The position numbers and the translations under genes are program-made. Under the pieces are notes generated by a model, which saw only the letters and a list, made by a program, of their open reading frames with translations, had not been told where the DNA came from and searched no databases. From Candidatus Goldiibacteriota bacterium HGW-Goldbacteria-1 (lineage in GTDB: Bacteria > Oederibacteriota > PGYV01), in the NCBI GenBank assembly GCA_002839855.1, contig PGYV01000006.1, positions 16,367-80,366 of the forward strand: a DNA stretch of 64,000 nt. Reading direction: 5' to 3'. Shown in pieces: positions 1-5,040 of this stretch; positions within the stretch are counted from its first letter, which is position 1, and the number at the start of each line of letters is the position of its first letter.

Positions 1-921
1 GCAGGTTCTGTTGAAAGCGCGGTTAAACCCGGTGATGTTCCGGCTGTCGCGTGGCATGACGATATAGCCGGCCAGCAGGACGTGTACTATCTTTATCATA
101 TCTGCGGCTATGTAACGCCGACGCATACCCCTACTGTAACAATGACCGTTACCGTTACAAATACGGTCACCTGTACAGCCACAATAACATTAACACAACA
201 GATTACCCCGACAGCAACGTGCACTGTAACCGCCACTATTACGCCCGCGCCTGTTGATTTGAAACCCGTAAAAAAAGCTATTGGTGAAAATCCGCGTATT
301 GGTTCGGAAATCACATATGAAATTACCCTTGAAAACGATTCGGATTTTATTATCTATAATCCTGCTTTGTGGGACACGCTTCCGAATGAAATATATTACG
401 CTTCACGCATATCCGGTCCGGAGCCTGACACAGTATATAGTTCGGGAAATTATTATTACTGGAGCCTGCCCGATACCGCTTTAAATCCGGGCAGTTCAAT
501 TACCATAAGGTTCAGTACCAGGATAGCATCAATAAGGCCGGATGGAATAATAACGAATACTGTATATGCCGATTACATGGACCAGCATTATAATACCGAG
601 AATCACAGGCATCCGCCTGTATGCTCTGATATTTCTTATTTTCCGCAGGGAATCGCGGCAGTATACCCGAATCCGTTTAACCCCGCCACAGCTGTCGGCG
701 GTAATATGAAATTCATTAACCTTGTCCCTGATTCAAGGGTGGAAATATATAATATTTCCGGAGAACACATAATAAGTATGCATTCGCCGGGCGTTGTGGT
801 TTTTTGGAACGGGACAAACAGGGCGGGACAAAAAGTATCGCCCGGTGTTTATTATTATGTTATAATTAATTTAATTACCCGGGAAAAAATAAAGGGTAAA
901 TTTTTTGTTGTATCAAAATAA
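1..921 (+). CDS. C-terminal part of a secreted DUF11-repeat protein with a T-X linker and a canonical T9SS/FlgD-Ig-like C-terminal domain (5' partial)
   Basis: The open frame continues upstream of position 1. A TPTVTMTVTVTNTVT linker is present. A DUF11-like segment reads ITYEITLENDSDF..YNPALWDTLP. The C-terminus reads VYPNPFNP...VEIYNISGE...WNGTNRAGQKVSPGVYYYVI, which fits the Por-secretion-tail/FlgD-Ig consensus. Confidence 0.7.
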   Translation, partial: AGSVESAVKPGDVPAVAWHDDIAGQQDVYYLYHICGYVTPTHTPTVTMTVTVTNTVTCTATITLTQQITPTATCTVTATITPAPVDLKPVKKAIGENPRIGSEITYEITLENDSDFIIYNPALWDTLPNEIYYASRISGPEPDTVYSSGNYYYWSLPDTALNPGSSITIRFSTRIASIRPDGIITNTVYADYMDQHYNTENHRHPPVCSDISYFPQGIAAVYPNPFNPATAVGGNMKFINLVPDSRVEIYNISGEHIISMHSPGVVVFWNGTNRAGQKVSPGVYYYVIINLITREKIKGKFFVVSK

Positions 922-935
922 CGGAGGTAATATTA

Positions 936-1484
936 ATGAAAAAAATTCTTTTAGTTTCTGTCCTTGTAGCGGTTTTATGCGCGCCTGTATTAAGCGATGA
1001 GCTTTCTGCGGATACTAACGCCAATTCAAACGTTACCACAACAACTGTTTATGATATTTTTATGCACGAGGACATTGCCACAAACGTACTTATGGGATGG
1101 GGCGGACTGTCGCTTGGCACAGGTTTGGTAATGTTTTCGAACGGAAATGAATTTGTAAAAGGTTACGGGCTTACAAACCTGATATGGGGCGCGGTTGATA
1201 CGGCGCTTGGCATATGGGCAAAGCAGAGCATTGATTTTAGAAAGGCAAATATTACCCCGGAAAAAGAACTGCAGGAATTTAAAGATAATATCTGGCTGAA
1301 TATGATAATAGACGGCGCCTGTATTCTGGCGGGAACCGGAATGCTGGTATGGGGAAATGAAAGCGTAAAAGGGTATGGAGCGGGAGTTTTGACACAGGGT
1401 ATATTTTTAATTACCTTTGACGGCGTGAATTTCATGATGGCAGAGAACCTTTCGAAAAGATATCCGGATACAACCGCAAACTGA
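936..1484 (+). CDS. small secreted/membrane hypothetical protein with an internally duplicated Gly-rich hydrophobic segment
   Basis: RBS GGAGG lies 8 nt upstream. A signal peptide MKKILLVSVLVAVLCAPVLS is present. Two related halves occur: GWGGLSLGTGLVMFSNGNEFVKGYG and GTGMLVWGNESVKGYG. Confidence 0.5.
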   Translation: MKKILLVSVLVAVLCAPVLSDELSADTNANSNVTTTTVYDIFMHEDIATNVLMGWGGLSLGTGLVMFSNGNEFVKGYGLTNLIWGAVDTALGIWAKQSIDFRKANITPEKELQEFKDNIWLNMIIDGACILAGTGMLVWGNESVKGYGAGVLTQGIFLITFDGVNFMMAENLSKRYPDTTAN

Positions 1485-1752
1485 TTGAATTTAATAGGGC
1501 AGGGTTAAAACTTTGTTTACAGACTTGTGTATATTAAGCTGAGTAACAAAGAAAATAAATGCTATAAGCAGGTTTGACCCATATTAATCCTGCTTTCCAG
1601 GGATGCAGGAAAGAATAATACTGAAAACTCAGAACTGTTGAATGAAATACGCAACAGTAACATAGGGTGGATAATTTTAAAAGTAATGAATGGAACAAAA
1701 GAGGATAAAAAAGCAAAGCAGGAAGTGAATTAAATAATGAACTTATACAGGT

Positions 1753-3321
1753 ATGAGAAAAAATGAAAAATTAATAAGTGATAAAGGTTTGATCCCCGGC
1801 CCGCATAATCAACAAAACAAACGAAAGAGGAGTTCGCTGACTTTGAAAATAAAATTTTTAAACTTCATAATACCTGTTTTCTTATGTGTTCTTGCCTTTT
1901 CAATCGTTCTGCCGAACGCAGATAAATCAATTTGGTATGATGAAGCCTGTACTGTTGATTTTTCAAGGCTTGTTCCGTCCGGACTGACAGAAATGCTTTC
2001 ATCCGGCAATAATCTTCCGGCTTACTATTATTTTATGAGTGCATGGACCTTTGTTTTCGGAATTAGCGAGACAGCACTCCGGTTACCCGGGATATTCTTT
2101 TATATAATTTCAACTGTTCTTGTTTTTTTATTCGGGAAAAACCTTTTCAAAAACACCGGTTTTGCTTTCGTTTCAGCGCTTATATATCTTCTTTTGGAAA
2201 TAAACACAACAAACGCAGTCAGTGCCAGACCCTACGGAATGCTGGCATTGCTAAGCTTACTTTCGTTAATGCTATTTCATAAACTTTTTATCGAAAAAGA
2301 ATACAGTCTTGTCTCAGGCATATCTTTTGTGGCTGTAAATATTGCAGGTAGTTTTACCCACATTTGGTTTTTCTTTTCTGTGTTGCCGCAAATTATTTTT
2401 TATCTGAAAAGCAACAAAATCACAGGTAAACGTTTTCTTGTTCTGTTTTTGAGCTCTTTCACTCCTTTTATTTTATTATGGAGCCCTATATTGCTGGCTC
2501 AAATGCAAAACGCCAGCAATGATTGGATGTTATTTCGTGGAGACGATCTGAGAGTGACAATTCAGTATTTCACAGCCGGAAAATTAAATACTATCTTCAT
2601 GTTTTTTTTGATACCTGTACTTGCAGGAGTTTTAGTTTCAAGACTGAAAAAAGATACTGCCAAAATTAATTACTTTTCCGAAAATGCTTCTTTTCTTTTT
2701 ATTGTTATCACTTTCAGTCTGCTTACCCCATACCTGATTTCATATTTCAGGCCGATATATGTCGTTGACCGCGGCCCTATTATTGCCGCAGCTCCATTTG
2801 CCCTGCTTCTTGGTTATCTTGGAAGTATTTCATATAAACCTTTTTTTTATCCGGCCGCAGCCTACTTTTCGATTTTTTTGTATATTACGCTGTATTCATC
2901 GCGCGCTGTTTATTTCGATACCGACAAAATAATAACAAAGGTAATAATTTCAAACTCCCGCAACGTTCGGCAAATAGTTTTATTTAACGAATCACAAAGA
3001 CAGGTAAAATACTATTTTAACAGGCTGCACTTTAATGGAGAGGTTTCGTTCTCAGATATACCCCTTATACTGTCTTATTCAAATATCTCCGAGTGGCGGA
3101 AACTTCCTGACAATATCCAAAATAAACTTCTTAGTGAATATACAAACAGTTTGAACAGAGATGGAAATCTGCTTTTTGTTTTCAATGATGCTGATGTTGA
3201 AAAAGAAAACTTTGCTCCGATATTTGAAAGCCTGAGAAAAAGCCGCAACATTCTCAGCATCAAGGAAATGAAAAGTTTAAGTTTAATACTTATAAACTTC
3301 GGGCCGCCGGTTAAATACTAA
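1753..3321 (+). CDS. polytopic membrane protein, GT-C (ArnT/PMT_2-like) glycosyltransferase family candidate
   Basis: The 522-aa protein has at least 10 hydrophobic helices. A WYDEA motif sits in the first loop, matching the DE motif of GT-C fold glycosyltransferases. Confidence 0.45.
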   Translation: MRKNEKLISDKGLIPGPHNQQNKRKRSSLTLKIKFLNFIIPVFLCVLAFSIVLPNADKSIWYDEACTVDFSRLVPSGLTEMLSSGNNLPAYYYFMSAWTFVFGISETALRLPGIFFYIISTVLVFLFGKNLFKNTGFAFVSALIYLLLEINTTNAVSARPYGMLALLSLLSLMLFHKLFIEKEYSLVSGISFVAVNIAGSFTHIWFFFSVLPQIIFYLKSNKITGKRFLVLFLSSFTPFILLWSPILLAQMQNASNDWMLFRGDDLRVTIQYFTAGKLNTIFMFFLIPVLAGVLVSRLKKDTAKINYFSENASFLFIVITFSLLTPYLISYFRPIYVVDRGPIIAAAPFALLLGYLGSISYKPFFYPAAAYFSIFLYITLYSSRAVYFDTDKIITKVIISNSRNVRQIVLFNESQRQVKYYFNRLHFNGEVSFSDIPLILSYSNISEWRKLPDNIQNKLLSEYTNSLNRDGNLLFVFNDADVEKENFAPIFESLRKSRNILSIKEMKSLSLILINFGPPVKY

Positions 3322-3778
3322 TGTCCGCCTTTACTGTCTTTGCATTAACTTGGTTATGCTGTCAAAACCCGCTTACAGACTTTAGTATAATAGGAATAAG
3401 ATGAGCGGTAAAGAAAATTAACGCTGTAAACAGGGTTTGGCCGGATATTATAATTTTTTATAACCTTTGACGGCGTTTATTTCATGATGGCAGAGAACCT
3501 TTCAAAAAGGTATCCGGATACCGCTACAAACTGATTAGATATATTATGTAACCGGTTAATTGACCGGTAAAATAACCGTAAATGATTAGACACATTAACT
3601 TATACTGGAATAGTATCCTTTGACGTAGTCATGGCTTACTGTCCCTGTAAAATCCTTTGTTTTCGTGGGGGATTGCTTAATTTTACATAACGCAATAAAC
3701 ACCTTCTATTAAAATAATGCATTTATACAAACCTACAAATTCCAGAATATAAAATCTAACAATCCCAACATACAAATG

Positions 3779-3811
3779 TCCCTAAAGGCACAAATAGTGC
3801 CTTTAGGGACA
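3779..3811 (+). other. perfect 14-bp-stem hairpin in a ~590-bp AT-rich non-coding region
   Basis: GTCCCTAAAGGCAC-AAATA-GTGCCTTTAGGGAC lies about 100 nt upstream of CDS 3914. Confidence 0.6.
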
Positions 3812-3913
3812 TTTATTCAAAATAAATATTACATAATACCTATGTTTTGACAGTTTTTTGGAAGGAATGAATCTTGCTTATTGTTATATGTAAATTGCCA
3901 GGAGGTGAAAGTT

Positions 3914-4291
3914 ATGGAACCGGACTTCAATTTAGAGCTTGAACAGATGATAGCCAACAAGCACAGAGTTCATGTAAGTGAAGAGGTTCGCTATAAAATC
4001 CTGGACAGGGAAGATGAAGAGTTTCAGGGCCTTTATATGGAAGCAAGGACAATTTCAATAAGCAAGAAAGGGTTAATTCTTCTTATGAAACACAGGGTAA
4101 AACCCGAAGATGCAATGATTGTTGAACTGATACTTGGTGCGGAAAAACGTAAAATTAAGACCTGCTGTGAGTCAATTGGCTGCAGAAAGGAAAGTTTTAA
4201 CAAAGGATATGAAGTGGAAGTGCAGTTTTTGATCTTAAAAGATGAAGACAAAGAATACATTGAACATTATATGAAACAAAACAGCGCCTGA
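3914..4291 (+). CDS. small cytoplasmic protein, possible PilZ-like domain
   Basis: RBS GGAGGTG precedes the ATG. KHRVHV and ISISKKGLIL segments weakly resemble the PilZ RxxxR / DxSxxG motifs. Confidence 0.3.
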   Translation: MEPDFNLELEQMIANKHRVHVSEEVRYKILDREDEEFQGLYMEARTISISKKGLILLMKHRVKPEDAMIVELILGAEKRKIKTCCESIGCRKESFNKGYEVEVQFLILKDEDKEYIEHYMKQNSA

Positions 4292-4359
4292 CTTCTGTGG
4301 ATTATCACAAGTAATTAATAGTGCATGTGATAATCTGCAGAAATGCAAAAGCTCTTTTC

Positions 4360-4415
4360 GCGTCCCTGCCTAATTCACCGCCCCCCCCGAAAAAGGCAGG
4401 GACGCGCTTTTTAAT
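4360..4415 (+). terminator. rho-independent terminator downstream of CDS 3914..4291
   Basis: A 12-bp stem GCGTCCCTGCCT / AGGCAGGGACGC is followed by a TTTTT run. Confidence 0.6.
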
Positions 4416-4482
4416 TATGCTTTTAAATCATAATCTTGCGCCGCCGCCGCTATTGTTGTATAATAAATTTAAAGAGGTGGCT

Positions 4483-5040
4483 ATGGCTTTTAAATGTCCG
4501 CGTTGTAATCAGGTAAACAAAGATGGAAGCGATACGTGCTGGAGCTGCCATACCATATTTGCCACCGGCGAAAAAAAACCGCTTGATATGAAAGTTAAAA
4601 AGTCAATTTTCTCAACGTTAAAAAGGGAAAAGGTTGATTTTAAAGTGGTTTCATCTGATTTTCCCGGGACAATTGCATTATATTTTTCAGCCCCTCCCAA
4701 AGAACGTTATATTCTTGCAAGGCTTACCGTATTTTTTCTTGTACTAAACCTTTTTAATAACATTATTTTTTATTATTTTAAAGGCGTTACACAGGCACAG
4801 GAAAATGCGGGCAGCATAACGACTTTTCTGGTAGTTTTTATAGCTATATACAGCGCTGTTATCTGTATAGCGCGGCTTAAAGCTGACACGGATTTTCCCG
4901 GAAAAACAGCTTACTTTTTTTACCTGTTTTTTATTCCTATTTTCGCTTTTGGTTATATTGTCCCGTCTTATTACCCGAATTTCAGGTTATTTCTGGAAGG
5001 TGCGCTGCTTATATGGAATGCGGTTCTGTTAAGGCCATAG
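4483..5040 (+). CDS. zinc-ribbon membrane protein (hypothetical)
   Basis: RBS AGAGGTGG precedes the start. An N-terminal CPRC...CWSC zinc ribbon is followed by 3-4 hydrophobic helices. The ORF-track start at 4321 lies inside the upstream terminator and is unlikely to be the true start. Confidence 0.5.
   Translation: MAFKCPRCNQVNKDGSDTCWSCHTIFATGEKKPLDMKVKKSIFSTLKREKVDFKVVSSDFPGTIALYFSAPPKERYILARLTVFFLVLNLFNNIIFYYFKGVTQAQENAGSITTFLVVFIAIYSAVICIARLKADTDFPGKTAYFFYLFFIPIFAFGYIVPSYYPNFRLFLEGALLIWNAVLLRP

Follow-up and report, generated by a model that had tools for sequence, protein, structure and literature searches.

The two nested pairs of repeats that enclose a membrane glycosyltransferase gene at this locus are, in our judgement, probably a scar left behind by duplicative insertion, a lineage-specific event at the 3' end of a DUF6992 gene. 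A block of about 2.2 kb with one intact PMT_2-like gene is bounded by two copies of the DUF6992 gene end (A and A'), and inside these a second pair (B and B') immediately flanks the glycosyltransferase segment. Along the window, by which we mean the whole stretch of 64,000 nucleotides that was analysed, the order is A-B-[glycosyltransferase gene]-B'-A', and all repeat copies are direct. The locus opens with a 182-aa open reading frame at 936-1484, followed by an open reading frame at 1753-3321, a non-coding stretch of 590 nt and the next gene from 3914. Its features are the following.

936..1484, plus strand: DUF6992 gene (182 aa, small membrane protein; Pfam PF22503), with its 3' end as the probable insertion target
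1403..1496, plus strand: repeat A, comprising the final 82 nt of DUF6992 coding sequence, stop included, and the next 12 nt
1480..1594, plus strand: repeat unit B, non-coding, abutting A directly (its core, 1517-1590, is robust; it probably reaches back as far as the stop-codon region)
1843..3321, plus strand: gene for a PMT_2-like (GT-C type) membrane glycosyltransferase, apparently inserted (longest open reading frame from 1753)
3336..3452, plus strand: repeat unit B', the second copy of B, immediately 5' of A' (robust core 3373-3450)
3453..3546, plus strand: repeat A', an untranslatable relic of the DUF6992 3' end (ITFDGVYFMMAENLSKRYPDTATN, then stop)
3547..3695, no strand: spacer Y, lineage-specific, from A' to the conserved intergenic DNA
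3774..3814, plus strand: conserved hairpin, an 18-bp perfect inverted repeat in the DUF6992-PilZ interval
3914..4291, plus strand: PilZ-domain gene (Pfam PilZ), which natively follows DUF6992

Over 900-4300, contigs from three samples (two from ENA, one from JGI) agree at every base, and the arrangement is therefore not an assembly artefact. The DUF6992 gene matches PF22503 with a score of 60 bits (cut-off 27; E=3.4e-16), and its orthologues occupy the same position in all related contigs. Within it, a direct repeat (1143-1168 against 1353-1378, at a spacing of 210 nt, reading GNEFVKGYG and GNESVKGYG) suggests that the protein may be built of two homologous halves of ~70 residues. The PilZ gene scores 22.6 bits, the Pfam cut-off being 22.5. 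Downstream of PilZ lies an open reading frame at 4321-5040 whose start is ambiguous, 239 aa when delimited mechanically and 185 or 207 aa according to gene callers; its product has a CPRC...CWSC zinc-ribbon-like motif, then hydrophobic segments, and has no Pfam match. GH44, GH5 and GH9 genes belong to the wider gene cluster around the locus, and the Goldbacteria phylum has been described as cellulolytic (PMC7031533).

Related lineages carry this locus without the block. Orthologous loci were recovered by exact-protein and homologue look-ups, and in 13 contigs from four Goldbacteria lineages (L011/L019/L020/L021; L006/L012; L013-L018; L022/L023) the DUF6992 stop is followed after 159-225 nt by PilZ; these contigs lack the glycosyltransferase gene, B, A' and any second copy of DUF6992. 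Compared with the window, the DUF6992 protein is ~92% identical in L011, L019, L020 and L021 and ~75% in L006 and L012; L013-L018, L016 included, stand at ~73% nucleotide identity, and the most distant are L022 and L023, with PilZ proteins at 64% amino acid identity. A multiple alignment places A' collinear with the gene tail of the relatives, and homology to their intergenic DNA restarts at ~3695; spacer Y (3547-3695) aligns to nothing in the empty-site relatives. The block from 1500 to 3700 has a GC content of 0.32-0.39 against 0.42-0.50 in the flanks, and the nearest homologues of the glycosyltransferase, at 41-46% identity, reside in unrelated genomic contexts, with flanks devoid of A or B. 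Taken together, the empty sites, the low GC and the unrelated contexts of the homologues indicate that the block is derived and probably horizontally acquired, in agreement with the preliminary description, which had taken the 1753-3321 gene for an insertion. From the sequence comparison, the stretch from 1497 to ~3695 reads as a low-GC, lineage-specific insertion between the DUF6992 stop and the hairpin.

A followed by B is found only in the genome of the window and in the lineage of contigs L007 and L008. The L007 contig ends at the window equivalent of 1650 and the L008 contig at 1507, and these ends, near the repeat region, may be assembly breaks induced by repeats or polymorphism at the insertion. 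When the right junction of the L007 lineage was sought via PilZ homologues, every contig recovered was of the empty-site type.

The hairpin is found in all six lineage sequences compared. Its arms, AAATGTCCCTAAAGGCAC and GTGCCTTTAGGGACATTT, form 16 consensus pairs, and at 4 of these the six Goldbacteria sequences show compensatory changes, and it is a probable native terminator or operator that now lies 3' of the insert. Rfam returned only spurious sub-threshold matches to two miRNA families, mir-4477 and mir-5881, on the 3774-3814 palindrome.

The product of the inserted gene scores 22.7 bits against PMT_2 (PF13231), below the cut-off of 26.1. PMT_2 matches were obtained for all five aligned members of its family (best E=6.5e-8), and PDB sequences searched with a profile gave nothing at E<=0.01. 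Of the four close homologues, P0004 and P0005 start at residue 31 of the long open reading frame and the other two, P0006 and P0007, start at residue 41. The TTG at 1843 encodes residue 31, and a strong Shine-Dalgarno-like AGAGGAG precedes it at 1828-1834. Given the starts of P0004 and P0005 and the position of AGAGGAG, the real gene is probably 1843-3321, and the annotated product of 522 aa is probably some 30 residues too long. Consensus scans detected no promoter-like site in 1484-1842 and no terminator-like site from 1484 to the hairpin outside the glycosyltransferase coding sequence. We infer that the gene would be co-transcribed with DUF6992, with the native hairpin acting as terminator. 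Two scans of genome contigs and one of viral contigs revealed no further carriers or donors.

The recurrence of the DUF6992 tail downstream of the glycosyltransferase gene, first noticed in the preliminary description, is borne out. A and A' (1403-1496 and 3453-3546) are 85% identical over 94 nt without gaps in a repeat search and 91.3% identical over 69 nt by BLAST (E=4e-20), and their local alignment score of 118 stands against a shuffle mean of 14.3 (z=48). It had likewise been claimed that the sequence 3' of the gene recurs, more diverged, ahead of the tail copy, and this too holds. B and B' share the ungapped pieces 1535-1575/3397-3437 (76%) and 1517-1536/3373-3392 (85%); when gaps are allowed, the local alignment of 1517-1587 with 3373-3451 reaches a score of 47, shuffled sequence averaging 16.1 (z=12.6), and the cores are ~75% identical with indels. 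The similarity extends beyond low-complexity sequence, neither repeat being of that kind, and no further copies of A or B exist elsewhere in the 64-kb window.

Anchored on the right, the alignment of B with B' continues some 35-40 nt further upstream (p=0.009 for the window copy and p=0.007 for the L007 copy), and the homology probably reaches back to ~1480, in the stop-codon region, and to ~3336, only 15 nt past the glycosyltransferase stop. With this extension to the stop-codon region, the swapped order that had been reported, and that we confirm (A then B at the left, B' then A' at the right), amounts to two nested direct duplications flanking the glycosyltransferase gene. Equivalently, the layout is a 2.5-unit tandem array of a ~192-nt (A+B) unit with the glycosyltransferase segment inside the middle unit.

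What does A' represent? It has no start codon, an in-frame stop is present at 3451-3453, and all three upstream forward frames are closed. When a profile of the DUF6992 tail (the last 300 nt and 15 nt past the stop, from eight sequences) was run with nhmmer, only 3453-3542 was aligned (E=1e-21), in a match whose envelope begins at 3412. The tail-only profile match and the untranslatable state of A' indicate that it is the duplicated 3' end of a single resident gene and not the remnant of a lost full paralog, and the preliminary view that a paralog's tail is all that remains is not sustained.

Compared site by site, A' carries TCA and AGG, the state in most other lineages, and A and L007 share TCG and AGA. 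The TGA stop and its neighbouring bases are common to A', A and L007. TTC, GCA and GAG are shared by A and A' and are absent from L007, L011, L019, L020, L016 and L006, and all three fall within a 25-nt tract that is identical between A and A'. This pattern argues that the duplication is older than the split between window and L007 and that gene conversion followed; a short conversion tract (about 1428-1452) would have homogenised the centre of A and A' later. The inner pair B/B' (~75%) is more diverged than the outer pair A/A' (~85%), which fits a nested insertion only if constraint and gene conversion acting on A slowed the outer pair.

B and B' would derive either from foreign DNA or from decayed coding sequence just upstream of A; they match nothing else. 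As a decayed coding sequence from that position, neither B nor B' gave a significant local alignment (z from -0.7 to 2.3), and the nhmmer profile of the DUF6992 family aligned neither of them. An anchored test for coding origin yielded p=0.0035 for B' and 0.02-0.1 for the window's B, and the 3' part of B', which only the envelope of the profile match touches, may carry the gene relic on in frame in degenerate form.

Several further candidates in the block were set aside. Additional tail-end copies at 3560-3613 (A'') and at 1703-1754, 5' of the glycosyltransferase gene, are not significant (p=0.06-0.12), and no similarity to the opening part of a split A copy was seen immediately after B (p=0.78). 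A 22-nt match of 1729-1749 with 3708-3729 is marginal (p=0.01). A minus-strand open reading frame of 60 aa at 1534-1716, overlapping B, was rejected as a real gene, its frame being broken by stops in L007; a gene caller called its L007 counterpart. Spacer Y contains a 12-nt tandem repeat, TAACCGGTAAAA, in 2.9 copies at 3549-3582 (TRF), including the palindrome AACCGGTT.

The DNA around the insertion is a mosaic. From -674 to 225 the window is 0.957 identical to L011 and 0.802 to L007; from 226 to 935 the figures are 0.787 and 0.848, from 936 to 1065 they are 0.808 and 0.885, and over A (1403-1496) they are 0.798 and 0.904, respectively. Downstream of the insert the window is ~0.88 identical to L011. 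The breakpoint, at ~225 (~5290 in L001), lies inside a CHU_C/DUF11 surface-protein gene that ends at 921, in or just after a Thr-rich linker. This switch in identity shows that the DUF6992 allele and the left junction are of the L007 type and the DNA upstream is L011-like; allele and insert therefore lie together in a tract with L007-clade ancestry, exchanged between Goldbacteria lineages by homologous recombination. The earlier wording that the gene had been inserted into, or recombined with, a tandem paralog array was apt as regards recombination, since the window changes from L011-like to L007-like at about 225. The possibility that A' is a freshly displaced native tail of the L011 type was rejected, its identity to the L011 tail being just 0.80, against 0.957 for the upstream backbone.

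How could such a layout arise? In the scheme that we favour, DNA would enter by recombination at the 3' end of DUF6992 and duplicate its target. Campbell-type integration, a single crossover, duplicates the recombining target. One route would be such a single crossover of a circular molecule; in the other, the tail unit would first be duplicated in tandem and the insertion would come afterwards. The duplication would occur twice, nested, or once as a complex event, giving A[(tail-end + B) glycosyltransferase (tail-end + B')]A'. The copy attached to the gene, A, would keep the reading frame intact, and the distal A' would be non-coding, decaying and partly re-homogenised with A. Both routes can produce the layout, and it does not fix the order of events. 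A counterpoint to duplicative insertion is the ~150-nt spacer Y that separates A' from the native intergenic DNA, and neither a donor locus nor a circular form was found.

Integration by a dedicated recombinase is an alternative that we regard as unlikely. The block would then be a decayed site-specific integrative islet, in which a tyrosine or serine recombinase acted at an att core within A, so that A and A' are attL and attR. That B' and B were arms around this core in a circle (B'-A-B), with the integrase since lost or supplied in trans, we hold to be unlikely to the same degree. The geometry agrees, as A-B-cargo-B'-A' is the product expected when a B'-A-B circle integrates at a chromosomal A, and insertion at a 3' end with preservation of the reading frame, clean empty sites and a deviating GC content are classic features of islands. 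The left junction is moreover common to the window and L007, even though, in its upstream backbone, the window resembles L011 more; a recombinant tract explains this equally well. The contents of the block speak against an islet: it measures only ~2.2 kb, and the glycosyltransferase is its only gene. No integrase or recombinase was found in 1485-3913, where, among open reading frames of 40 aa or more, only the glycosyltransferase gene matches a family, and excisionase remnants are absent as well. Neither a transposase reading frame or remnant nor inverted repeats at the boundaries were detected at the block (p=0.04 and 0.77 in the inverted-repeat tests). B and B' are diverged repeats of ~75-115 nt and not short arm-type sites, and no relative of the glycosyltransferase was found in viral contigs.

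A more speculative form of this idea, to which we give very little weight, makes A/A' and B/B' the recombination sites of a single-gene cassette that lacks an integrase, is mobilised in trans, targets the DUF6992 3' end and has moved between Goldbacteria lineages, B being a structure- or sequence-specific site duplicated on either side of the cargo.

The preliminary description had instead read the locus as a tandem array of DUF6992 paralogs, the glycosyltransferase gene having been inserted into, or having replaced, the second of them, with B'A' as its last surviving piece; this now seems very improbable. A' is indeed a fragment of a gene tail, and its frame may extend into B' over ~30-80 nt (GFG...FFITFDG), in line with the anchored test mentioned above. 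A second DUF6992 gene occurs at the locus in none of the relatives, and none is present elsewhere in the window, where tblastn matches only the 26-residue A' fragment. The orthologous locus had been proposed as the place to look either for the absence of the glycosyltransferase gene or for an intact second paralog: the former expectation is confirmed and the latter is not, in any of the 13 contigs of the four lineages. The family DNA profile aligns nothing at the locus beyond the 3453-3542 segment of the relic, and B, the copy of B', lies directly 3' of the stop of the intact gene, which is not expected of a paralog's body.

Least probable of all, and about equally so, are two remaining readings. 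In one, the block was present ancestrally and disappeared from the relatives through precise deletion, by recombination between A and A', which direct repeats of 94 nt would permit and which might seem favoured by L011, a contig that lacks the block and is nevertheless closer than L007 to the window across the upstream 900 nt; this requires at least three independent losses, including one in L022/L023, each removing spacer Y too, and the composition of the block is foreign and the L011/L007 incongruence is explained by the breakpoint. In the other, B and B', possibly with A', are functional elements under selection, for example a regulatory RNA, a terminator or a folded site of the attC kind. 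A B unit does stand within 20-40 nt 3' of each of the two open reading frames, DUF6992 and glycosyltransferase, as in a cassette array, and one predicted stem keeps its pairing between B and B' through double changes. Only three sequences are available for this comparison, the predicted folds differ among the copies with energies that lie at z -2.05 to +0.79 relative to shuffles, so that a conserved RNA or DNA structure was rejected, B has no Rfam match, and RYYYAAC/GTTRRRY boxes are absent from both strands of B, B' and Y. The absence of B from all empty-site relatives further indicates that it is not a native regulator of DUF6992.

Duplicative insertion, the reading that we prefer, makes the locus a case of a bacterium of a candidate phylum, Candidatus Goldiibacteriota HGW-Goldbacteria-1, gaining a membrane glycosyltransferase gene, apparently slotted between a gene and its terminator. 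The insert sits within the conserved cluster containing GH44, GH5 and GH9 genes, in a region where recombination has made a mosaic of lineages. Annotators should mark A' as a gene fragment and should probably shift the start of the glycosyltransferase gene to 1843; DUF6992 paralogy should not be concluded from this locus.

Comparison with known systems places the event among familiar kinds. It differs from an IS element, a transposon or a MITE in having neither terminal inverted repeats nor a transposase, and its flanking repeats, of 94-115 nt, are diverged. The likeness to integron cassettes and attC arrays, an alternation of reading frame and repeat, is superficial, since attC boxes, a consistent hairpin and an integron integrase context are all missing and DUF6992 is a fixed syntenic gene. 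Islets and other integrative elements at gene 3' ends come closer, with cargo between direct repeats of the target tail (~94 nt here), an intact reading frame, empty sites and a shift in GC; here, however, there is no recombinase gene, a single cargo gene and a nested B/B' pair, and the repeats are long and 85% identical rather than a short identical core. Tandem segmental duplication with pseudogene fragments offers another parallel, in that A' is a decaying, untranslatable 3'-end copy undergoing gene conversion with the functional one, whereas the copies at this locus are ~2 kb of foreign DNA apart and the order of the units is permuted (A-B ... B'-A'). Campbell-type or homology-facilitated duplicative integration is matched by the ~100-nt recipient copies that bracket the insert, the lack of element machinery and the mosaic flanks, although two nested duplications are needed in this case. 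The event is thus of a known sort, a routine insertion-associated duplication at a gene 3' end that left a tail relic in a recombinant region.
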